IMG/VR virus record: IMGVR_UViG_2547132281_000005
Direction: 5' to 3' (one strand)
From: a virus
Taxonomy: Duplodnaviria; Heunggongvirae; Uroviricota; Caudoviricetes
DNA length: 17,319 nt
Positions 1,969 to 15,898 of the stretch are shown one piece after another. The notes beneath the pieces were generated by a model. The model saw nothing but the letters and a program-made list of their open reading frames with translations. It was not told where the DNA came from and ran no database searches. Position 1 is the first letter of the stretch, and each line of letters begins with the position of its first letter. Both the position numbers and the translations under genes were made by a program.

Positions 1969-2185
1969 CAACCGCAGCACGTTCTTGCTTAAGACGAGCT
2001 GCGGCATAATCCCAATGATTACTCCCTGACAGGGTTCGTAGGCCACTCAATATCAGGTGCAGTTGATGTATCAACACGGTTCAGCAACACCCGATACTTT
2101 TTCCAGGCTTCCAGCAATGAGGTTTCTTCCTCCGTTGCAATTTCCAGATCTGCAGCATCCTGAAGCGGCGCAATATGCTCACTGG
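1969..2185. repeat. Direct repeat copy B (tfa 3' end plus downstream hairpin)
   Basis: Partner of 919-1135; contains hairpin 1972-2004 immediately after the convergent stops of the methyltransferase and tfa. Confidence 0.7.
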
Positions 2186-2603
2186 CTACCTGCATCAGGT
2201 TGTTTTTTGTTTCTTCCGCCTCCCGGATCCGGAACAGTTTTTCTGCTTCCGTATCCTTCACCCAGGCTGTGCCGTTCCACTTCTGAAACTCCCCTTCCGG
2301 CGATAACCAGGTAACATTTTCCGGTAACGGACCGAGTTCAGAAATAAATAACTCGTCCCCTGACGCTACGTCATAAACCGTTTTACCCCGATGGTCTTCA
2401 ACGAGATGCCACGATGCCTCATCACTGTTGAAAACAGCCACAAAGCCAGCAGGAATATCTGGTGGTGCAATATCGGTACTGTTTGCTGGCAGACCTGTAT
2501 GAGGCGGAATATATGCGTCACCTTCACCAATAAATTCATTAGTTCCGGCCAGCAGATTATAAATTTTTATGGTCCGTGCTTGTTCACTCATTCTGAATGC
2601 CAT
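2019..2603 (-). CDS. tfa: Tail fibre assembly protein Tfa (194 aa)
   Basis: Same length as lambda Tfa (194 aa) and conserved Tfa C-terminal block. Its ATG (2603-2601) overlaps the stop of the upstream fibre ORF in a TAATG arrangement, as in the lambda stf-tfa pair. Confidence 0.85.
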
Positions 2604-3550
2604 TATGCAAGCCTCACAATATAGTTAAATGCGATGTTTTTGACGGTGTTTTCCGCGTTACCCGCAGCGTTAACGGTGATGGTGTGTCCATGTGAACCAA
2701 TCGCAACGGAGTGCGTATGCGCACCAATACCTACAGTATGTGCATGTGCGCCAGAACTTGCTGCAGTACCAGACAGCGAGTGGGTATGAGCACCTGCTGA
2801 CTGTGTCTGAATACGTTGATAATACGATCTATAGGAAGAAGTCTCCGGGCTTACTTGATACTGTGAATTCTGGACATAAGTGAACCCACCGCCATCATAA
2901 AATGCTAACGCAGAACCGCCGCCTCCTGGCCAACGAATACCATTACCATGAGTATGAACACCGGCAGACCCCGTAGAGCCACTCAGACTGTGCGTATGCG
3001 CCCCGGTGTTATTCGTGGATTTAGTGCCGTAATCAAACGACGATGTGGTTTTCGTCCCCAAATCCGTACTGGATGCGCTGGCGCTGTGGGTGTGCGATTT
3101 AATGCCGTCCTGTTCCTGAGACAATACGGCCCGGCCACTGGCGGGTTTGCCCTTGATTGTCCAGCCGCGCATATCTGGAATAACACCTGAAGGATAGGCA
3201 ATAGCCAGTTTCGGATATGCTGCCTTATCAAACGTCTGCCCCTGCATGATTGCATAACCTGCAGGTGGTGTATCTGATGGCCACGGCAGCGGAACACCTG
3301 GCGGAAACGCTTCAATATTTGCCGAGCCGTCAAATTTTACGCCGTTAATTGTCCTTGCAGTTTGCAATTTGGTTGCTGTGCTTGCATTAGTCGAGGCTAA
3401 GGGCTTTTTTAACCTCGCATCCGCGCCTGCGGTAACACTGAATGAGCCATTCGGCCTGTTCTTCAGTGCATGGGGGGTGCTGGTACCAGTCTGACTTAAA
3501 TGCATGAGAATACCGCTCGTGCGTGTGGGCAAGAACGGTCGAATTATCAT
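2603..3550 (-). CDS. stf: Side tail fibre protein, C-terminal fragment (lambda orf-314-like), N-terminally truncated
   Basis: 315-aa ORF rich in G/S/T/A with repeated GAHTHS / HxH motifs and a [13 protein letters not shown] block typical of Stf C-terminal regions. The frame hits a stop at 3602-3604 just upstream and the ATG at 3550 has no RBS, so the N-terminal shaft portion is missing. Confidence 0.6.
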
Positions 3551-3578
3551 GATTGTAATATTTTGCGTTGCGTGCCAT
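3387..3578 (-). CDS. Hypothetical 63-aa protein overlapping the stf fragment in another frame
   Basis: ATG at 3578 preceded by GGAGA with a 6-nt spacer; sequence is not fibre-like ([23 protein letters not shown]...). Could instead be a chance ORF. Confidence 0.35.
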
Positions 3579-3644
3579 CGGTTTTCTCCGGTGGCACGGT
3601 GTTACTCAGCGGGAGTTCAGCCCCGCGCAAGATTGTAGATGAGT

Positions 3645-3896
3645 TTATTCTTCTGAAAAAGCAGAAAAGCCAGCTTTTATTCCGATCTCTTTCAATGCCT
3701 GTAATGAAGTGACAAACTCACCGTCGCGCAAGATAAATCCGTCCGTCACTCGGGCATCCACAAAATTAATTAACGCAGCCCCATTTTTTTGCAAACACAC
3801 AATGCGGTAATGACTAACAATATTTCCATTTTCAACGCACACAGCATAGAGGCCATCTTCACAAAAAATTTTACGCAGTTCTTCGATGTTCATCAT
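3645..3896 (-). CDS. Hypothetical 83-aa protein
   Basis: Tandem ATG ATG at 3896-3891 preceded by GGAAGGA with a 5-nt spacer. No recognisable family. Confidence 0.5.
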   Translation of the reverse strand: MMNIEELRKIFCEDGLYAVCVENGNIVSHYRIVCLQKNGAALINFVDARVTDGFILRDGEFVTSLQALKEIGIKAGFSAFSEE

Positions 3897-4011
3897 CAGA
3901 ATCCTTCCGGATAATTAGCTCTCCCCTTTAAGGGACCATCCCTCTTATCCCTGCGCGCTACTTAAGTATTTTTGATTCTATTCCGGCACCGTCCAGAACT
4001 TCAAACGCGTT

Positions 4012-4043
4012 GAAAATAAAAACAAAAACCCGCCGAAGCGGGT
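4012..4043 (-). terminator. Rho-independent terminator of the hok transcript
   Basis: On the minus strand: stem ACCCGC / GCGGGT (4028-4043) with 4-nt loop, followed by TTTTTGTTTTTATTTT (complement of 4012-4027). Confidence 0.55.
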
Positions 4044-4112
4044 TAAGTGCGGGTGCGTTGAGGATGCCTGCCACATCAGAGGTGGCGAGGGATTTCTCCC
4101 TCGCCGGGTCTC

Positions 4113-4268
4113 TTACTCCTCAGGTTCGTAAGCTGTGAAGACAGCGACCTCCGTCTGGCCGGTTCGGATTCGTACCTCGCAGAGGTCTTTCCTCGTTACC
4201 AGTGCCGTCACTATGACGGTTAAACAGATGACGATCAGGGCGATTAGCATCGCCTTTTGCTGCTTCAT
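4113..4268 (-). CDS. hok: Hok/Gef family type I toxin (51 aa)
   Basis: MKQQKAMLIALIVICLTVIVTALVTRKDLCEVRIRTGQTEVAVFTAYEPEE closely matches the Hok/Gef family as I recall it. ATG at 4268 preceded by GGAGA; stop TAA at 4113-4115. Confidence 0.85.
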   Translation of the reverse strand: MKQQKAMLIALIVICLTVIVTALVTRKDLCEVRIRTGQTEVAVFTAYEPEE

Positions 4269-4325
4269 AGCCTGCTTCTCCTTGCCTTTCGGCACGTAAG
4301 AGGCTAACCTACGTGTGTAGAGCAT
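4113..4325 (-). CDS. mok: Mok (modulator of killing) reading frame, in-frame N-terminal extension of hok
   Basis: 70-aa ORF sharing the stop and frame with hok, as in chromosomal mokC/hokC. Confidence 0.55.
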   Translation of the reverse strand: MLYTRRLASYVPKGKEKQAMKQQKAMLIALIVICLTVIVTALVTRKDLCEVRIRTGQTEVAVFTAYEPEE

Positions 4326-4370
4326 AGGTATGGCCTCAGATTAATGTTAAGCGTCTTGCCGGACGCGTAA
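4295..4370 (+). ncRNA. sok: Putative Sok-like antisense RNA (position inferred, boundaries approximate)
   Basis: Inferred from hok/sok organisation: the antisense RNA should overlap the mok initiation region. A plus-strand hairpin GCGTC-ttgccg-GACGC lies at 4351-4366 but lacks a clean U-run, so the end is uncertain. Confidence 0.25.
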
Positions 4371-4443
4371 TGTTAACTGGGGCTTTTCTCTATCTGCCTT
4401 TGGTGTTGATGCCCGAGGCAGATAGCCTCAAGCACCCGCAGCA

Positions 4444-4472
4444 ATTCTACTTAACTACCGTTACCTCGCCAA
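4444..4472 (-). promoter_or_regulatory. Candidate sigma-70 promoter for the hok/mok mRNA
   Basis: Minus strand reads TTGGCG (complement of 4467-4472), 17-nt spacer, TAGAAT (complement of 4444-4449). A 9-bp stem 4390-4398 / 4417-4425 sits in the predicted 5' leader. Confidence 0.4.
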
Positions 4473-4479
4473 TATGAAA

Positions 4480-4569
4480 TCAATCAGAAAGGTGATCCAT
4501 AAGAACAACAGCAAGACAATAAATTGCCATTACAGCAGCAATAGCCAGCGCACATTTGAGAACCAGCAC
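4480..4569 (-). CDS. Candidate small hydrophobic peptide (29-30 aa, type I toxin-like)
   Basis: AGGAGG (complement of 4575-4580), 5-nt spacer, GTG at 4569; encodes VLVLKCALAIAAVMAIYCLAVVLMDHLSD, then TGA (4482-4480). The DNA here is TGY-repetitive and open in several frames, so this may be chance. Confidence 0.25.
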   Translation of the reverse strand: MLVLKCALAIAAVMAIYCLAVVLMDHLSD

Positions 4570-4947
4570 CACAACCTCCTGTATTGGACGTACACCAGTC
4601 CTGATAAATATGAGGCTGTCTCGTCAGTGATTCAATACAACTACTGGGTATAGTTTCTATGATTTTGTTCTGTGGAAATGGAAAACAGCAACCAGTCACC
4701 ACCAGCACTTCTTTAAACATGCCAAGTCACACGCAAGCCAACATTATAGTTCCCTTTGAGCGAGCAGATGAAGCTAGCAAAAATATTGATCACTTAGGAT
4801 GCATTACTAACGTTGCTATGTGTTAACGAACAGGGAGTGGGTCATCAGCATAAATATTTATGCAGTAGGTTTCTTTTAGGACTAGATTAATCAAAAACAT
4901 TTAGATAAAATTATAAAATCAAGAAATTGGTGGCAATTAATCTTTAA

Positions 4948-4976
4948 TTGTGCCAGCTGAATTTCGTTATTATAGA
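4948..4976 (+). promoter_or_regulatory. Candidate promoter for the membrane-protein/methyltransferase operon
   Basis: TTGTGC (4948-4953), 17-nt spacer, TATAGA (4971-4976) in an AT-rich region upstream of the GGAGAG SD and ATG at 5011. Confidence 0.3.
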
Positions 4977-5326
4977 AGATTAGCTTTTTTTTGAATGTTT
5001 GGAGAGTAAAATGTTAGAACCACCAAAGAGTTATAATGAAATGTTGCCTATGCTCCATAAGGCGACTTTTATTACTACATTTATATTTTACCTATCATTA
5101 GTCATTTATGGCTACATGCCATTGGTTGGCATTAATGCCAAGTATATCCCCCCCGTTAAAGACTACGAGGAATTTATTAAATGGATATTAACCTTTGGCA
5201 TATTACCAATTGCATCTTCAGTTTTTTGGTCAGTAATTAGTGGAGCTTTAGATCTACATAATAATGTAGCAAAAATTATTGGAATAAGGAAGATGTGGGA
5301 TAGTCATTTAATTATTAAACCATTAG

Positions 5327-6521
<1,195 letters not shown>

Positions 6522-6911: not shown

Positions 6912-7571
6912 TTGATTTTGAATTACAAAATAAATGGAATAAACATACGTTCAGAAAATGCAGCGAAACCGCACACTATGCCATCTAACTATCTCTGTAA
7001 ACAGATTGAAAGCACTAATAAAAATGGCAATGCCCTTGATTTTGGATGTGGAAAACTTAGATATTCAGAACAATTAGTAAATAAATTTGAAACTGTGACA
7101 TTTTTAGATTCCAGAAGACAACTAGAAAGAGTGCAAATTATCAGAGGTGTACAAACCACGATTCCAGATTACGTGATAAATAACTATAAGAATGCTAATA
7201 TTGTTTCTTATGAAAATATAGATAAAATAACAAATCATTATGATTTCATACTTTGCGCAAACGTGCTTTCCGCAATTCCATGTGAATCCACAATTCACAA
7301 AGTCCTCAGTGCGATTAGAGAATTATTAAAGAGTGATGGTGAAGCACTGATTGTCAATCAATACAAAAGTTCTTATTTCAAGAGGTACGAGAGCGGTATT
7401 AAACATTTGCATGGGTATATATACCAAAACTCTCGTAATGCTTTCTACTATGGTTTATTAGATGTGGATACTGTAAGTAAAATATGCTCAGATAATAATT
7501 TAGAAATAATAAAATCATGGAGCAAAGCAGGTAGTTCATATGTGGTTGTTGGTAAACATATACATATTTAG
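6912..7571 (+). CDS. TehB-like class I SAM-dependent methyltransferase (about 217-219 aa)
   Basis: Motif I ALDFGCGKL, acidic LDSR, YDFILCANVLSAIP and LKSDGEALIV blocks resemble TehB-type methyltransferases. Likely start is TTG 6918 (GAGG 6908-6911, 6-nt spacer) or TTG 6912; begins 7 nt after the membrane-protein stop. Confidence 0.7.
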   Translation: MILNYKINGINIRSENAAKPHTMPSNYLCKQIESTNKNGNALDFGCGKLRYSEQLVNKFETVTFLDSRRQLERVQIIRGVQTTIPDYVINNYKNANIVSYENIDKITNHYDFILCANVLSAIPCESTIHKVLSAIRELLKSDGEALIVNQYKSSYFKRYESGIKHLHGYIYQNSRNAFYYGLLDVDTVSKICSDNNLEIIKSWSKAGSSYVVVGKHIHI

Positions 7572-7885
7572 TTTATTTCAACAAATTATTAGAAAGAGTG
7601 ATTTGCTTGTTAATTATTAGCTCGGCAGTGCCGGATCAACATGACCCTGCCACTTAGGCCATTGCCGGTTTACCTACTTTTGTAAGGTTCAGCATGAAGT
7701 TTTTATATACTCTTCCTAATATCAATAGTGATGCTCGCTTATGTTAGCTGCTTCTTGTACATAGTAGCCTTCTCCGACAGTACTGCAATGAGCGGAGAGT
7801 AAAAGTCGATAAACAATAAGGAGGTTCACAATAAATATTTCTCGGTGAAACTTTCAAAGCATTCTCTGTTTTGCTAAATCGACAA

Positions 7886-8785
7886 TTATAAATCAACAAC
7901 ATTTAGTGTTATATCAATATTATTTAGCCTTGCAATCTCTGATGAATCACTTGCTATTTTAGCTTTTAATTTATCAATATTAATCATATCTTCATGGCTT
8001 ATATAAACCATATCACCTTGGTTAACTTTAGATTTGTTCACTATGGCTTGAATAACAGACAAATCATCCATTACACCTCTCATAAATTTCACCATGCTTT
8101 GATCTTTGAAGTCAGATATCGATTTTGAGCGTTGCTTACGTTGAATTGTTCCTTTTGTAATTACTTCATTAATTTCTTTTAAACCAGTGAGCATATCAGA
8201 CAGACTGCCTTCGCAACTCATCCGATGTTTTATTGCATTGCGATTAATAATATTGAGTATAATTTCGAGTGAATCTTTATCACTCCATGGATGTAATGAT
8301 GTATAATCATGATGGCGTCGAATGGCGTCAATCATATCCTGGACCATATCTTCATCTGCTTTATCGCAAAGTTCATTCACGAAATAGCTGGGGTCGATTA
8401 TTTTACAATAACTTGGAGTTAGGTATCTTGAGGCTTTACAAAAACCAAAAATATATAAAGTAGAGTATTTATCTTTCAGACTCTCTCCTATTTCATTTGT
8501 TTCCTCAAAAGATTCGATAGTTTTTTTAATTTTTGCTGGACTTGCATTCGTAGTAACTTGAACTGCTATCATGTTTTTATTATCAGCTAAATCAATGGCG
8601 GGAAAATTAACTTTAATCTGATTCATGTTTACCAGTTCACCCATTTTCAGCGCGCGAAACATAAAGATGGTCAATGACTCAATTATTCTTTCCATGTCAT
8701 GAAAGCCTGCCTGTTTGCGTTGCGCGATATAAAGCTGGAGTAGTGCAATATCACTCTGTAAGTTTCTAATAAGTGGATCAATCAT
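7886..8785 (-). CDS. Hypothetical 299-aa protein, AT-rich orphan (candidate defence/abortive-infection gene)
   Basis: ATG at 8785 with AGGA upstream; long uninterrupted ORF, convergent with the methyltransferase. No recognisable catalytic motif (no HExxH, no Walker A, no TM segments). Confidence 0.7.
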   Translation of the reverse strand: MIDPLIRNLQSDIALLQLYIAQRKQAGFHDMERIIESLTIFMFRALKMGELVNMNQIKVNFPAIDLADNKNMIAVQVTTNASPAKIKKTIESFEETNEIGESLKDKYSTLYIFGFCKASRYLTPSYCKIIDPSYFVNELCDKADEDMVQDMIDAIRRHHDYTSLHPWSDKDSLEIILNIINRNAIKHRMSCEGSLSDMLTGLKEINEVITKGTIQRKQRSKSISDFKDQSMVKFMRGVMDDLSVIQAIVNKSKVNQGDMVYISHEDMINIDKLKAKIASDSSEIARLNNIDITLNVVDL

Positions 8786-9037
8786 AGCTAATAATCCTTT
8801 TCAATGAAGCTGGAGGTGTGTTTAACTATTAGTTAAATTTCTATTTTTATAGAAACAAGCTTTACAACTTCATCAAAGTTTCTCAAATCCTAATCCACTT
8901 TGCAAATCCACTAACCATGCTGAATGCTTTCTGTTGTTAAACATATCCGCTGCTGGCACCAAGCAGACAAACACACTAACTCTACCCTACTCCACAAAAG
9001 AGCCAATCAATATCTGAACTAATAAACTTTAATCTCA

Positions 9038-9460
9038 TCACTTCAATAAATATCGAGCATTTCCCTGATAGAATGCTAGTATGCGCTGCATAACTTCACT
9101 CTTCCGGCACTCGCGACAGATTATGTTCTGACGCCTGTCGTAGCGACGTATTTCTCCGTCAGGTAATGACCAGATAAGGTCCGGATCAACCGCAGATGGT
9201 TCCTTCAGCTTTGCCCTTGAGAGCTTTTTACGGGCATTTTGCCAGTCCTTACGCGCCTGTTCAGACGGGAATAACCCGTAACCAGAGTTGTATACATCGC
9301 CGCTGGCAACCAGCTCTCTTGCGAGAACGCTCATCAGATATCTTGTCGCACCTGTCTTGACTTCCAGTTGCCGTAACGTCTCACGACCGCTCTGGCGCAC
9401 GAGTTCCACCACCTGCCCTTTAATTTTTTCCCGCTCTTCTTGTGTAAAAACTTTTGCCAC
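9038..9460 (-). CDS. Hypothetical 140-aa protein (possible DNA-binding protein)
   Basis: GTG start at 9460 preceded by AAGGGGG with a 4-nt spacer. N-terminal helical region (ETLRQLEVKTGATRYLMSVLARELV) and basic C-terminus. Confidence 0.55.
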   Translation of the reverse strand: MAKVFTQEEREKIKGQVVELVRQSGRETLRQLEVKTGATRYLMSVLARELVASGDVYNSGYGLFPSEQARKDWQNARKKLSRAKLKEPSAVDPDLIWSLPDGEIRRYDRRQNIICRECRKSEVMQRILAFYQGNARYLLK

Positions 9461-9500
9461 AAGTCCCCCTTAAAATTACCTCATGACCTGAAATCAAAAC

Positions 9501-10520
9501 TTATCCTCTGAAACCAGGCGGAATTTCTGTATCCGGTTCAGAAATATGATTAACACAACGCTGTACAGGTGAACGCCCCAGGCGGATGACCAGTTCGTCC
9601 CATTTTTCGCGGAGCTTTGACGGGCTCATGATGTTTTTTACCCAGAACGGATCCCGCTGTACCCGACCAAACATTTCACAAATTTGTCTGTGGCTTCTGC
9701 CATCCAGCATCCGCATTGTGCGCACATCATTGGCCCAGACAGTCCAGTTAGGCTCTTTTGGTCGCATGATCTCGCCATCATCACTGGCGGCCTGTTCGTA
9801 GAGACCCACGATCCGCCCCCATATCCACTGCGCACACGCCAGATCCTCCTGGCTACCCCACTGGCGTTTTTTCGCACTAAACACAACTGCGCCAGGGTGC
9901 CGGATTAAAAAATCCTGTTCAGCCGTCTGCGGGTCCGGTTGCGAAGCTTCCGGACGAAAAGTGTTTTTATTCTCTGTAGTAATCTCTGTTGTATTCTCTG
10001 TAGGATCATCGGGCCATTTTGACCCGATGACATTGGGTCGTTTTGAACCAATGGAGCGTTTCATTTTGACCTCTTCCATCGTGTCATTTTGACCTGATGG
10101 AGCGGCGCATTTTGAACCGATGGATTCGCTCAATTTGCCATCATCTAAAAGCTCGCTCCCATAGTTAATCGTGTAGAAATTGGTCATATCGCGCTTTGAT
10201 TTATTGAGCTTTTCACAACGCAAGAGCCCCAGCGTTTTCAGACTTGCAAACGCGCGCTTTAACGTTGACTCTGACCAGAATGGGAACTGTTCCAGCCATT
10301 GTTCCGTTGTGTTGTAAATCCAGCGAACACCATCACATTCCATGCCGGAATTGGTATCTCTCAACCAGTAATGCAACTGCTGCAACACAATGGCTTCATT
10401 TAAGCCAATCTTCATCGCAAGCTGTGTGTTTATAACCAGTGGGCGTTCAGCAAAAAGAAGGCTCATAATTCCATCCAGCTTTTTGTTGGTATTGCTGTCG
10501 ATACGCAAGTTTGAAAGCAA
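9501..10520 (-). CDS. Phage replication initiation protein (replisome organiser, O-like) with internal origin iterons
   Basis: N-terminal region (LNEAIVLQQLHYWL...WIYNTTEQWLEQFPFWSESTLKRAFASLKTLGLL) resembles phage replisome-organiser N-domains; repetitive middle encoded by the iterons. Real start may be ATG 10466 (MSLLFAERP...), which shortens the overlap with the upstream gene to 20 nt. Confidence 0.7.
   Translation of the reverse strand: MLSNLRIDSNTNKKLDGIMSLLFAERPLVINTQLAMKIGLNEAIVLQQLHYWLRDTNSGMECDGVRWIYNTTEQWLEQFPFWSESTLKRAFASLKTLGLLRCEKLNKSKRDMTNFYTINYGSELLDDGKLSESIGSKCAAPSGQNDTMEEVKMKRSIGSKRPNVIGSKWPDDPTENTTEITTENKNTFRPEASQPDPQTAEQDFLIRHPGAVVFSAKKRQWGSQEDLACAQWIWGRIVGLYEQAASDDGEIMRPKEPNWTVWANDVRTMRMLDGRSHRQICEMFGRVQRDPFWVKNIMSPSKLREKWDELVIRLGRSPVQRCVNHISEPDTEIPPGFRG
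10015..10123. repeat. Iteron array (candidate replication origin) inside the replication gene
   Basis: Five copies of CATTTTGA(C/A)C-N-GATGG at 10015, 10039, 10062, 10085 and 10108 (23-24 bp spacing; third copy degenerate), preceded by three TCTCTGT(A/T)G repeats at 9971-10004. Confidence 0.6.
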
Positions 10521-10968
10521 TTGCTTTTTCTATAAGTTCGTCAGTTTCACGATCCACTACGGCAGGATCAGCAAAAAGCAGTCCGGACTCCACCACATCG
10601 CCATATTCTTTGTTTAACCCGGCGATCATGTACGTGATGCTTTTTCCGTCACTAATTTCACGATACAACCTGAAATCATTAATCCGGATAGCCTCCATAA
10701 TTGCAGGCACTAGCGCCGTGAACTTTTCACGCTTATCCCTGGTGTCGATAGCCTTCCAGCGTTCGAATATCTTCACTCGATTAACGCCAAGCGCTCGCTG
10801 ATCAACCGCGCCACCTTCATCTGTGACACGCTGAACATCGATGTTCGGGCGCTCTTTCAAAGCCCAGAATGCTTCAGTGATTAATATCGTCGCCTGCTCC
10901 TGTGTCATTCCTGGTCGACATATCCAGGCATCCAGAGCCTCACGAGCCTGTTCAGGAGTGATTTTCAT
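10447..10968 (-). CDS. Hypothetical 173-aa protein in the cII / YdaT position
   Basis: Lies between the Cro-like gene and the replication gene on the same strand and overlaps the Cro-like stop by 17 nt. Family assignment is positional only. Confidence 0.55.
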   Translation of the reverse strand: MKITPEQAREALDAWICRPGMTQEQATILITEAFWALKERPNIDVQRVTDEGGAVDQRALGVNRVKIFERWKAIDTRDKREKFTALVPAIMEAIRINDFRLYREISDGKSITYMIAGLNKEYGDVVESGLLFADPAVVDRETDELIEKAIAFKLAYRQQYQQKAGWNYEPSFC

Positions 10969-11179
10969 TGTTCAACCGCCCCGCCCGCTTCGTCTTACGA
11001 TATTCGTCATAAACCTTGGGATCATACAGAAGCTCGCCGCCAGATGCCTCCTGTAGACGCATCGCGCGACCTTCAGGAACTAGCTCTTGCCATTGAGAAA
11101 CAGCAGATGGGTCAACGCCAGCAGCTTTCGCTACTTTGGCTTTCGTACCGTAAAAATTAATTACGTCTGATTTAAACAT
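10952..11179 (-). CDS. Cro-like / YdaS-like HTH regulator (about 75 aa)
   Basis: ATG at 11179 preceded by GGAGG (complement of 11184-11188) with a 4-nt spacer; HTH segment TKAKVAKAAGVDPSAVSQW; divergent from the repressor gene. Confidence 0.65.
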   Translation of the reverse strand: MFKSDVINFYGTKAKVAKAAGVDPSAVSQWQELVPEGRAMRLQEASGGELLYDPKVYDEYRKTKRAGRLNNENHS

Positions 11180-11191
11180 CGCACCTCCAAT

Positions 11192-11207
11192 ATTGAGTTT
11201 TCTCAAT
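11192..11207. promoter_or_regulatory. Palindromic operator candidate in the divergent repressor/cro promoter region
   Basis: Perfect 16-bp palindrome ATTGAGTTTTCTCAAT; the same TTGAGTTTTCTCA core recurs twice at 11729-11778. Confidence 0.45.
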
Positions 11208-11664
11208 GCTAATCACTCAAGGAATCTCAAGTCAAGGATTATTAAGATATCTAAATATGAACGAGAAAACTTTAGGTCAACGCATTAGAGAAAGACGTAA
11301 GCAGGTAGGCTTAAGTCAAAACGGTTTAAGCAAAGCTGCTGGCGTATCTGGCTCATCAATTTCATTATGGGAAAGTGACCATACAGCCCCGCGCGGGCAA
11401 AATTTGCATCGCCTCGCCGAGGTATTGCAATGTTCACCAACCTGGATACTGTTTGGCGACGAGGACAAAACACCAGCTCCCCCTGTTTCACTCGATAGTA
11501 CCCTAGACTTATCGGAAGATGAGTTAGAGATGCTGCGTTTGTATCGCGCACTTCCTAAATCAGAGCAACAAGCACAACTCAGCGAACTCCGCGCCCGCGT
11601 TGAGAATTTTAATCGCCTGTTCACCGAGCTATTAGAGGCTCGCAAACGCAACAAGCATCAATAA
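11206..11664 (+). CDS. cI/C2-like prophage repressor, N-terminal HTH (XRE family), no S24 peptidase domain
   Basis: From the internal ATG 11257 the protein starts MNEKTLGQRIRERRKQVGLSQNGLSKAAGVSGSSISLWE, like the P22 C2 / RacR-type N-terminus as I recall it. Either 11206 or 11257 may be the start; both lack a strong SD (possibly leaderless). Confidence 0.8.
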   Translation: MLITQGISSQGLLRYLNMNEKTLGQRIRERRKQVGLSQNGLSKAAGVSGSSISLWESDHTAPRGQNLHRLAEVLQCSPTWILFGDEDKTPAPPVSLDSTLDLSEDELEMLRLYRALPKSEQQAQLSELRARVENFNRLFTELLEARKRNKHQ

Positions 11665-13426: not shown

Positions 13427-15898
13427 ATGAGTAAAGTCTTTATTTGCGCCGCCATTCCGGACGAACAGGCAATAAAGGAAGAAGGTGCCGTCGCTGTAGC
13501 CACTGCCATTGAAGCCGGTGATGAACGTCGCGCCCGCGCAAAATTTCACTGGCAATTCCTGGAACATTATCCGGCTGCTCAGGACTGCGCTTATAAATTT
13601 CTTGTTTGCGAGGATAAACCCGGTATACCCCGCCCTGCCCTCGATTCCTGGGATGCTGAATATATGCAGGAAAACCGCTGGGATGAGGCGTCTGCTTCCT
13701 TTGTCCCGGTCGAGACTGAATCCGATCCGATGAACGTCACTTTTGACAACCTAGCCCCTGAAGTACAGAACGCTGTCATGGTTAAGTTCCACACATGTGA
13801 AAAAATCACTGTTGATATGGTGATTAGCGCACAGGAATTGTTGCAGGAAGACATGGCAACATTCGACGGCCATATCGTTGAAGCGTTGATGAAAATGCCA
13901 GAAGTTAACGCTATGTATCCGGAGCTTAAGCTGCATGCCATCGGGTGGGTTAAGCATAAATGTAAGCCTGGTGCCAAATGGCCCGAAATTCAGGCAGAGA
14001 TGCGCATCTGGAAAAAACGTCGCGAAGGTGAACGCAAGGAAGCCGGAAAATACACGTCTGTTGTTGATCTCGCCCGCGCCAGAGTCAATCAACAGCACAC
14101 TGAAAATTCAACAGGAAAAATCAACCCGGTCATTGCTGCCATTCATCGCGAATACAAGCAGACATGGAAAACACTGGATGACGAACTGGCCTACGCTCTC
14201 TGGCCTGGTGATGTGGATGCCGGAAACATTGACGGCAGCATCCATCGCTGGGCAAAAAATGAAGTTATCGACAACGACCGCGAAGACTGGAAGCGTATCT
14301 CGGCATCAATGCGCAAACAGCCTGATGCCCTTCGCTACGACCGCCAGACTATTTTTGGCCTTGTCCGTGAACGTCCGATCGACATTCACAAAGACCCTGT
14401 GGCACTGAACAAATACATTACTGAATACCTGACTACAAAGGGCGTGTTTGAAGATGAAGGAAGAAATCAGAGCGCAACTGATACTCTCTCGTCGCCAGTA
14501 CCAGAAACTGATGCAGTGGAAACGGCAATTCCGGACAACGAAAAAACCGAATGCAAAGTGGAAGTCGAACCATCTGTAGAGCGTGAGGGGCCGTTCTACT
14601 TCCTCTTCACCGACAAGGATGGCGAAAAATACGGTCGCGCAAACAAACTTTCTGGTCTGGATAAGGCGCTGGCTGCCGGGGCAACTGAAATCACGAAAGA
14701 AGAATATTTTGCCCGCAAAAACGGCACATACACAGGTTCACAACAAAATACTGATGCATCTGACACGACCGCACAACCAGACCTGGTAAAAGTTACCGCT
14801 GACGAAGTAAACAAAATTATGCAGGCAGCCAGTATCAGCCAGCCTGACGCTAATAAGTTGCTCGCTGCATCACGTGGTGAATTTGTTGAAGGGATTAGCG
14901 ACCCGAATGATCCGAAATGGGTGAAGGGGATTGAAACCCGCGATTCTGTGCACCAGAACCAGTCAGAAACGGAACAGTACGACCAAAAAGCGGAACAAAA
15001 CAGCCAAAATGCGTTACAAAACGAGCCAGAAACGAAACAACCTGAACCAGTCGTGCAACAGGAAGAGGAAAAAGTTTGTACCGCATGCAATCAGACTGGT
15101 GGTGGTAACTGCCCTGATTGTGGCGCAGTGATGGGTGACGCAACCTACCAGGAGACATTCAACGAAGAAAGCCAGGATGAAGCCCGGGAAAAAGATCCAG
15201 AGGAAATAGAAAATGCCGGACTCCCGAACAAGGAGTGCACCGAAGGCGATCAACATGCCAATGACAATAATGAAATAGGCGAGACAGCAAATCCCTTAAT
15301 TAAGGTGAACAGTCATCGTAAAAGCACATCCACCAGCAGGTTGTGGCACCATCTGATGATTGACCTTGAAACCATGGGAAAAAATCCTGATGCCCCGATT
15401 ATCTCAATAGATGCAATATTTTTCGATCCGCAAACCGGAGATATGGGACCGGAATTTAGTAAGACTATCGATCTGGAAACTGCTGGCGGAGTCATTGATC
15501 GTGACGTCATTAAAAGGTGGCTGAAGCAATCACGTGAAGCGCAGTCTGCCATTATGACCGATGAAATCCCGTTAGATGATGCACTGTTACAATTGCGGGA
15601 ATTTATCGACGAAAACTCCGGTGAATTTTTTGTTCAGGTCTGGGGAAATGGAGCCAACTTCGAAAACACGATTTTGCGCCGTTCATACGAACGGCAGGGG
15701 ATCCCCTGCCCATGGCGTTACTACAACGATCGCGATGTACGCACAATCGTTGAGCTGGGGAAAGCCATAGACTTCGATGCCAGAACGGCTATTCCATTCG
15801 AAGGTGAGCGCCATAATGCACTTGATGACGCCCGTTACCAGGCAAAATACGTTTCAGTTATCTGGCAAAAACTGATCCCGAATCAGGCTGATTTTTAA
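13427..15898 (+). CDS. Large multidomain protein (823 aa) with C-terminal DnaQ/Orn-like DEDDh 3'-5' exonuclease domain
   Basis: ATG 13427 with GAGG upstream. Central acidic/Gln-rich linker and CxxC-x9-CxxC zinc-ribbon-like motif (CTACNQTGGGNCPDCG, about 15076-15123). C-terminal about 185 aa (15341-15895) carry MIDLETMG (Exo I), VWGNGANFENTIL (Exo II-like) and HNALDDARYQAKY (Exo III). Confidence 0.85.
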   Translation: MSKVFICAAIPDEQAIKEEGAVAVATAIEAGDERRARAKFHWQFLEHYPAAQDCAYKFLVCEDKPGIPRPALDSWDAEYMQENRWDEASASFVPVETESDPMNVTFDNLAPEVQNAVMVKFHTCEKITVDMVISAQELLQEDMATFDGHIVEALMKMPEVNAMYPELKLHAIGWVKHKCKPGAKWPEIQAEMRIWKKRREGERKEAGKYTSVVDLARARVNQQHTENSTGKINPVIAAIHREYKQTWKTLDDELAYALWPGDVDAGNIDGSIHRWAKNEVIDNDREDWKRISASMRKQPDALRYDRQTIFGLVRERPIDIHKDPVALNKYITEYLTTKGVFEDEGRNQSATDTLSSPVPETDAVETAIPDNEKTECKVEVEPSVEREGPFYFLFTDKDGEKYGRANKLSGLDKALAAGATEITKEEYFARKNGTYTGSQQNTDASDTTAQPDLVKVTADEVNKIMQAASISQPDANKLLAASRGEFVEGISDPNDPKWVKGIETRDSVHQNQSETEQYDQKAEQNSQNALQNEPETKQPEPVVQQEEEKVCTACNQTGGGNCPDCGAVMGDATYQETFNEESQDEAREKDPEEIENAGLPNKECTEGDQHANDNNEIGETANPLIKVNSHRKSTSTSRLWHHLMIDLETMGKNPDAPIISIDAIFFDPQTGDMGPEFSKTIDLETAGGVIDRDVIKRWLKQSREAQSAIMTDEIPLDDALLQLREFIDENSGEFFVQVWGNGANFENTILRRSYERQGIPCPWRYYNDRDVRTIVELGKAIDFDARTAIPFEGERHNALDDARYQAKYVSVIWQKLIPNQADF

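Follow-up and report, generated by a model that had tools for sequence, protein, structure and literature searches.

In phages lambda and 434, the replication origin (ori-lambda) lies inside gene O, which encodes the replication initiator, and host DnaB is delivered by the loader protein P. A minority of lambdoid phages, LLS among them, carry O only: such modules occur in 34 of 314 lambdoid phages, and their replication was described as "not yet understood" in a report that gives no origin anatomy and no mechanism, and makes no mention of DnaT or DnaC (PMC12315714, Genome Res 2025). Here we consider a 17,319-nt stretch of viral DNA (IMG/VR record IMGVR_UViG_2547132281_000005; hereafter the window), in which arrays of short repeats lie within the gene of an O-like initiator of 321 aa (9501-10466, minus strand, ATG at 10466; phrog_391). 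We propose that these repeats are probably a lambdoid prophage replication origin, set where the initiator gene codes for its linker, and that a DnaT-like tail of the initiator recruits the host DnaB-DnaC complex in place of P. The module is a member of the O-only class, which is already known, and the origin itself is an ordinary one in a widespread E. coli prophage family; the new lead worth following is the DnaT-like tail, together with its covariation with loader type.

The larger of the two repeat arrays (10007-10145, minus strand) consists of iterons with the 23-bp sense consensus CATCGGGTCAAAATGACCCGATG. Five units, at 10007-10029, 10031-10053, 10054-10076, 10077-10099 and 10100-10122, are joined by a degenerate sixth at 10123-10145. 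Exact copies of CATTTTGAMC number four in the whole window, all at 10015-10117, where 0.15 would be expected and none of 200 shuffles reaches four; a fifth copy, with one mismatch, stands at 10039, and the start-to-start spacings are 24, 23, 23 and 23. The five repeats at 23-24 bp spacing that a preliminary description of this DNA had reported are thereby recovered, with the degenerate unit in addition. Three of the units possess internal dyad symmetry, being near-palindromic with 8-9 of 10 arm positions complementary, and two are half-sites. The iterons are presumed to be binding sites for dimers of the N-terminal winged-helix domain of the initiator, for which their co-variation with that domain (below) is an indirect sign.

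Directly downstream in the gene sense is an AT-rich, purine-skewed zone (9961-10003, minus strand), with a GC content of 0.33 against 0.49 for the whole initiator gene, and AT and purine fractions of 0.67 each. It contains three 12-mers in a 12-bp tandem array (9968-10003) which read CTACAGAGAATA, CAACAGAGATTA and CTACAGAGAATA in the sense direction. The motif TCTCTGTWG, likewise noticed in the preliminary description, occurs three times in the window, only at 9971-10003 (0.22 expected; 0 of 200 shuffles reach three), and is thus present beyond chance. Lying where ori-lambda has its A-rich zone, this stretch is presumed to be an unwinding element or a site for a host factor. A route through DnaA boxes was rejected, as TTWTNCACA is not enriched and has no copy inside the initiator gene. 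As had been claimed, both arrays lie entirely within the open reading frame (ORF) 9501-10466 of the minus strand: the iterons occupy nt 322-460 of the 966-nt gene, i.e. its central part, and the whole origin, iterons and then A-rich zone, spans nt 322-499.

The likeness to ori-lambda that was first suggested for this array holds well, with at least four regular repeats in mid-gene, dyad symmetry and an AT-rich region downstream. The annotated ori-lambda iterons of phage 434 lie at nt 349-433 of gene O with spacings of 20, 24 and 23; their sequence is ATCCCTCAAAACGAGGGA, and an A-rich zone comes after them. Shared by lambda, 434 and the window are at least four iterons of ~18-23 bp with dyad symmetry, a central TCAAAAYG flanked by inverted arms, a spacing of ~20-24 bp, a position in the middle of the initiator gene, the order of iterons then A-rich zone, and a homologous C-terminal domain of the initiator. 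On the other hand, the N-terminal DNA-binding domain encoded in the window is not of the Pfam Phage_rep_O type, the arms of the iterons differ, and the AT-rich zone is made up of three tandem 12-mers.

The initiator matches phrog_391 ('replication initiation O-like') over its full length (E=3.5e-92), and found no family match in Pfam (E<=0.01), including the N-terminal Phage_rep_O (PF04492), or in NCBIfam. Its C-terminal domain (about aa 170-315) is 32-37% identical to the O proteins of lambda, 434 and 933W and to phi80 gp15 over aa 147-315 (tblastn, E 1e-17 to 2e-18). A profile of 23 such C-terminal domains found no Pfam family and no PDB sequence, and a relationship of this domain to the DnaT domain or to a known fold was discarded: the tail alone matches DnaT. 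A low-confidence structure model (mean pLDDT 55) predicts a winged helix at residues ~11-100, a disordered linker at ~84-175, a helical lambda-O-type C-terminal domain at ~183-296 and a disordered tail at 298-321; it is this linker which the origin DNA encodes. Initiators of RepA_N-type plasmids and of Gram-positive phages also have the origin inside the rep gene. Here too there is some likeness, as the N-terminal domain of our initiator shares, over aa 3-139, 43-46% identity with initiators of staphylococcal phages, and a fold search with the low-confidence model gave weak winged-helix and RepA_N matches, the best being the N-terminal domain of pSK41/pTZ2162 RepA and the complex of that domain with DNA. 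However, the C-terminal domain is of lambda-O type, and the structural match has an E-value of only ~0.06.

Is it the DNA or the encoded peptide that is being maintained? A period of 23 bp is not divisible by three, and successive units fall in codon phases 0, 2, 1, 0, 2 and 2. The preliminary description held that the repeats encode repeated peptide units, which is right for the 12-mers (TEN/TEI/TEN) and breaks down for the iterons, only three of which yield (S/V)IGSK. In relatives with a 77%-identical N-terminal domain, the number and spacing of the iterons are kept. The repeats, whose absence from functional relatives had been named as a refutation, are present in such relatives. In a relative with a 60%-identical N-terminal domain (L011), the iterons are swapped for a different repeat (GGGCAAATTGCACTCATCGA-like) and the 12-mers are unchanged. 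Indeed, no part of the gene varies less among relatives than the 12-mer stretch (0.80), though this codes for a low-complexity linker. As the iterons use every codon phase and co-vary with the DNA-binding domain, we conclude that selection acts on the DNA. Natural variants of this origin are found in P0018, L133/P0100 and L011 (6035-6925); one allele lacks 31 aa (93 nt, or four iteron periods) and another has a fourth 12-mer, these copy-number variants being in-frame.

The gene downstream of the initiator encodes a protein of 140 aa (9038-9460, minus strand) at the position of ren in lambda. As first described, it is not a P- or DnaC-like loader: neither sequence nor fold gave a match to P (PF06992) or DnaC/IstB (PF01695). 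It matches PF06163 (DUF977/LygF; E=1.7e-30) and phrog_142, 'Ren-like exclusion protein' (E=1.5e-46), with no match in NCBIfam, and in its structural model the N-terminal 80 aa (pLDDT ~90) form a winged helix for which Foldseek returned only regulators of the MarR/GntR/ArsR type. These results rule out a hidden loader; moreover, there are relatives in which the DUF977 gene follows a genuine P or DnaC-like gene, so that it is no stand-in for a loader. We conclude that it is a small winged-helix accessory protein. We also set aside a full homology with Ren, since only a 20-aa C-terminal motif aligns directly with 434 Ren and the link rests on PHROG 142 and gene position.

A loader is not found elsewhere either. 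The window lacks any P-, DnaC- or DnaB-like gene, and no partner P gene lies directly downstream of the initiator. Using lambda P, phi80 gp14, a P homologue from L333, a phage DnaC-like protein and P22 gp12 as queries, tblastn (E<=0.01) gave no match in the window, in phage HannyBb (complete genome, 45 kb) or in the early regions retrieved for phages mEp460_ev081, PhiR42_1 and SfIV, and all positive controls were detected. Annotations of related phages agree with the absence of a loader gene. The module thus fits the O-only lambdoid class, with P, DnaC-like and P22 gp12-like genes absent from both the window and the complete HannyBb genome, and it has close copies in phage isolates.

How, then, might the helicase be loaded? 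A candidate answer lies in the last 21 residues of the initiator, VQRCVNHISEPDTEIPPGFRG (codons at 9504-9566, minus strand), which are identical to residues 159-179 of E. coli DnaT at 15 of 21 positions (PDB 2ru8, 6aep, 9zbt_D) and conform to the DnaT tail pattern ...VN.(V/I)SEPD..IP.GFRG-COOH. The Pfam DNA-binding domain of DnaT (89-154) does not include this tail. The likeness to the PDB chains of DnaT is limited to residues 301-321 of our initiator, in which neither the DnaT DNA-binding domain (PF17948) nor the DnaT N-terminal domain was detected; the protein is regarded as an origin-binding initiator and not a restart factor like DnaT. IPxGFRG is kept across the initiator family, and the linker before it is variable. 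Searches of the literature for this motif, or for phage proteins described as 'DnaT-like', gave nothing specific apart from a DnaT C-terminal motif in DopC (Brezellec et al. 2017).

A scan of viral contigs for the pattern D..IP.GFRG-stop gave at least 120 matches, and the counts that follow apply to the 120 listed. Nearly all are the C-termini of phage initiators of 260-370 aa, in 24 clusters and with at least five architectures: a lambda-O-type C-terminal domain, DUF1376, HTH_36+Phg_2220_C, Phage_rep_O (cluster 5, a tailed initiator that does match PF04492) and the DnaT domain. Where at least 1 kb is available downstream, a DnaC-like gene follows in 54 of 98 cases, a P-like gene in none and neither in 44; searching the whole locus of the 120 listed gave 61 with a DnaC-like gene, and none with a P-like or DnaB-like one. 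The downstream DnaC-like phage protein, of the AAA+ type, matches IstB_IS21 and, from end to end, the DnaC model of NCBI (E=2e-89). As a control we scanned for the lambda/phi80-type tail D[LF].NTDW, in place of a profile search with the C-terminal domain, which had returned only one close subfamily (69-75% identity) and was not used. Among the matches listed, NTDW-tailed O proteins with enough downstream sequence are followed by a P-like gene in 81 of 84 cases, by a DnaC-like gene alone in none, and by neither in three. An initial idea that the tail replaces the loader, and so predicts its absence, was ruled out, as about half of the tailed initiators adjoin a DnaC-like gene; in its place stands the statement that tail type predicts loader type.

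The same pairing is seen on the chromosome. In a scan of species-representative genomes, the chromosomal DnaT of 63 Enterobacterales species representatives keeps the tail, and dnaC follows dnaT in 58. Of the remaining loci, four break off with less than 1 kb of sequence beyond dnaT, and in the fifth (L412), a search of the 3.4 kb available found no dnaC-like ORF. E. coli DnaT and the initiator of the window are nearly identical in the last 21 residues, and the order in the dnaT-dnaC operon, a tailed protein and then a DnaC-family loader, recurs in many phage modules. Rac-type modules are a further point of comparison, with a DUF1376 initiator, a DnaC-like gene and DUF977, genes we take to be those named YdaU, YdaV and YdaW in Rac (DUF1376 presumably being the YdaU family). 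They have the same initiator tail, terminal DUF977 and Cro/YdaT-type upstream genes as the window, but differ in the core domains of the initiator and in placing a phage DnaC-like loader, often with DUF1627, between initiator and DUF977. In contrast to the lambda O-P system, the window has no P gene and its tail is IPPGFRG, not the NTDW type found with P.

Two natural exchanges illustrate this covariation. P0034 encodes an initiator 75% identical to that of the window, with the same iterons and 12-mers and the same Cro-YdaT-O-...-DUF977 backbone; its DNA homology to the window ends at residue ~296, exactly at the junction of C-terminal domain and tail, beyond which the protein ends in DWNSADGWEDVL and a Phage_lambda_P gene follows. 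A sister initiator of 320 aa has a different N-terminal domain and its own linker repeats, with a C-terminal domain and tail ~93% the same, and occurs either directly before DUF977 or with a 1.5-kb DnaC-like+DUF1627 cassette placed exactly after its stop codon and before DUF977, in modules that are homologous in other respects (L058, 2924-4468). The type of tail goes with the type of loader, even though host DnaB is what both loaders deliver, and the simplest reading is therefore that the tail contacts the loader or the DnaB-loader surface; where a DnaT-type tail occurs without a phage loader, it follows that host DnaC would be used.

Three side observations concern the tails of other initiators. 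Lambda-O-type C-terminal domains (representatives P0121-P0269; L209-L212) end in a few recurrent tails, namely IPxGFRG, D[LF]xNTDWxxG[VL], WNSxExWE[DN]xL and some others, which points to a general code for the partner protein. Proteins of 270-360 aa, from phages or prophages, that combine a full PF17948 with the tail and are often followed by a DnaC-like gene exist in L073 (6479-7342, minus strand), L336, L402, L450 and L452, a hint that the chromosomal dnaT-dnaC pair and the initiator-dnaC pairs of phages have common ancestors. Other initiators, with no loader annotated beside them, in Vibrio phage K67 (L212, 2081-3010) and vB_EcoS-733R5 (L008, 3408-4325) end in ...DPQFRF and ...NSGFRT respectively, possibly divergent versions of an F-R-x C-terminal motif.

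Taken together, we picture the following course of events. Dimers of the N-terminal winged-helix domain would bind the partly palindromic 23-bp iterons, the duplex would open at the adjacent AT-rich 12-mer zone, and the flexible tail, a copy of the C-terminal tail of host DnaT, would then recruit the host DnaB-DnaC complex; host DnaC would thereby do the job of P in lambda, in a module that encodes no helicase loader. Binding of the iterons, the site of unwinding and the contact between tail and DnaC (or DnaB-DnaC) are steps that we infer. Several points weigh against this picture. The late genes of this prophage copy are lost, and its origin may never fire productively. The structural model of the initiator is of low confidence, as given above, and the covariation counts come from related, non-independent contigs among the 120 matches listed per scan. 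In DnaT itself, the N-terminal domain, and not the tail, may recruit DnaB/DnaC, by a mechanism that "remains unknown" (PMC13377028, 2026), and removal of residues 154-179 weakened binding of single-stranded DNA in vitro only modestly (PMC4132743). Finally, the O-like DopC, which has a DnaT C-terminal domain or motif, pairs with a P-like protein (Brezellec et al. 2017), so that DnaT-like C-termini do not go with DnaC partners exclusively.

What of the alternatives? The preliminary description considered the replicon probably non-autonomous: without a loader gene it could not initiate alone, and the iterons would be relics or would titrate the initiator or host factors. That the window holds no loader gene agrees with this, as does the state of the prophage copy, a remnant with an IS5 insertion and no late region. 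However, the O+DUF977 module exists at 95-96% nucleotide identity in the deposited phage isolates HannyBb (complete genome), mEp460_ev081 and PhiR42_1, and a related O-only module is carried by SfIV, a phage which is UV-induced, plaque-purified, lysogenises, and was propagated on strain SFL124 (PMC3851460). With O-only modules in isolated and plaque-forming phages, and in 34 of 314 lambdoid phages overall, the absence of a loader does not support non-autonomy; nor do the intact initiator ORF, which belongs to clusters of 705 and 3664 member sequences, and the visible DNA-level constraint on iterons and 12-mers. We regard this explanation as improbable, and have abandoned the earlier verdict: the copy in the window is defective because its late genes are lost, and not because a loader gene is missing. 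Could a loader instead be supplied in trans, by the DnaC-like or P gene of another resident prophage, making O-only modules dependent satellites? DnaC-like genes are common in E. coli prophages, and the sister initiator is found both with and without a DnaC-like cassette. Against this, O-only phages grow lytically on indicator strains (SfIV on SFL124, and E. coli C given as the host in the record of PhiR29_2), and it is the tail of host DnaT, encoded next to host dnaC, that this tail most resembles; such dependence seems scarcely probable to us.

A more serious contender, if still an unlikely one, is a functional origin that bypasses DnaC, with the initiator binding DnaB directly, the tail engaging PriA/PriB so that a PriA-type primosome forms at the opened origin, or replication being mainly recombination-dependent. 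DnaT acts in the PriA-PriB-DnaT preprimosome, where its C-terminal domain docks on PriA (PMC13377028), and, according to PMC12315714, the O-only phage LLS came from a screen for phages with growth affected by host RecBCD. Yet the initiator has no match to PF17948, the DnaT DNA-binding domain that docks on PriA, many tailed initiators adjoin a downstream dnaC-like gene in the manner of chromosomal dnaT-dnaC, and a tail that follows the loader (DnaC-like or P) rather than the DnaB which both deliver points to the loader as its partner. Lastly, the repeats might serve the protein only, as a repetitive, flexible linker of IGSK and TEN motifs with no role for the DNA. The linker is predicted to be disordered, and three units do encode (S/V)IGSK and the 12-mers TEN/TEI/TEN; still, a period that is not a multiple of three, one DNA motif in all three phases, palindromic units, iterons that change together with the DNA-binding domain, and 12-mers that are the most invariant DNA of the gene despite coding for a low-complexity linker make this highly improbable.

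If a DnaT-like tail recruits DnaB-DnaC to this origin, a broader idea presents itself: the short C-terminal tail could be a portable 'loader address', in which IPxGFRG designates DnaC-family loaders, of phage or host, and NTDW or WxxxxWE those of lambda-P type, with O-only phages borrowing host DnaC by mimicry of DnaT. This generalisation we put forward tentatively, without counting on it. Were it true, it would predict that the conserved tail of DnaT is the missing contact by which the PriA-PriB-DnaT preprimosome recruits DnaB-DnaC. Two questions from recent papers, helicase loading in O-only phages (2025) and the recruitment of DnaB/DnaC by DnaT (2026), are thus made testable by a single motif of 7-21 residues, for which the natural swap variants, with the same origin and initiator core and a different tail and loader, are ready-made controls.

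The window is part of a lambdoid prophage of the Qin/CP-933O-like kind. Positions 9000-10600 match E. coli 55989 at 100% identity, and the homologous prophage adjoins ompW there; the contiguous O+DUF977 stretch is present in 1594 of 5426 complete E. coli genomes; in none of the complete genomes does contiguous sequence cover more than 80% of the window. On the minus strand, the initiator gene is preceded by a Cro-like gene (10952-11206; PF14549 P22_Cro) and a YdaT/CII-like gene (10447-10968; PF06254 YdaT_toxin), a pair supported by phrog_409/phrog_163, and followed by DUF977. The two are the upstream genes of the same rightward operon, and the initiator gene is entered by transcription passing through them. 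A CI-like repressor gene (11206-11664, plus strand) runs divergently, identified by HTH_3 and Phage_CI_repr matches and by the annotation of relatives as repressors.

Beyond the replication module lies the AT-rich island mentioned in the preliminary description, with a GC content of ~0.30 over 7000-9000. Its cargo includes a SMEK-domain protein (7886-8785, minus strand) and a class I SAM-dependent methyltransferase (6912-7571), and looks like moron or defence cargo; a second methyltransferase is encoded at 1296-1964. In the stretch 2019-6489, an IS5-type DDE transposase occupies 5473-6489, and the tail-fibre ORF at 2603-3550 is truncated at its 5' end, matching only the last third of fibre profiles and abutting rem/hok-like ORFs (3645-3896, 4113-4325). 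This prophage copy is a deletion remnant which has lost its late genes, with the replication module itself intact. A further repeat, of 21 nt in three tandem copies with indels (14979-15040), lies inside the gene of an 823-aa exonuclease (13427-15898).

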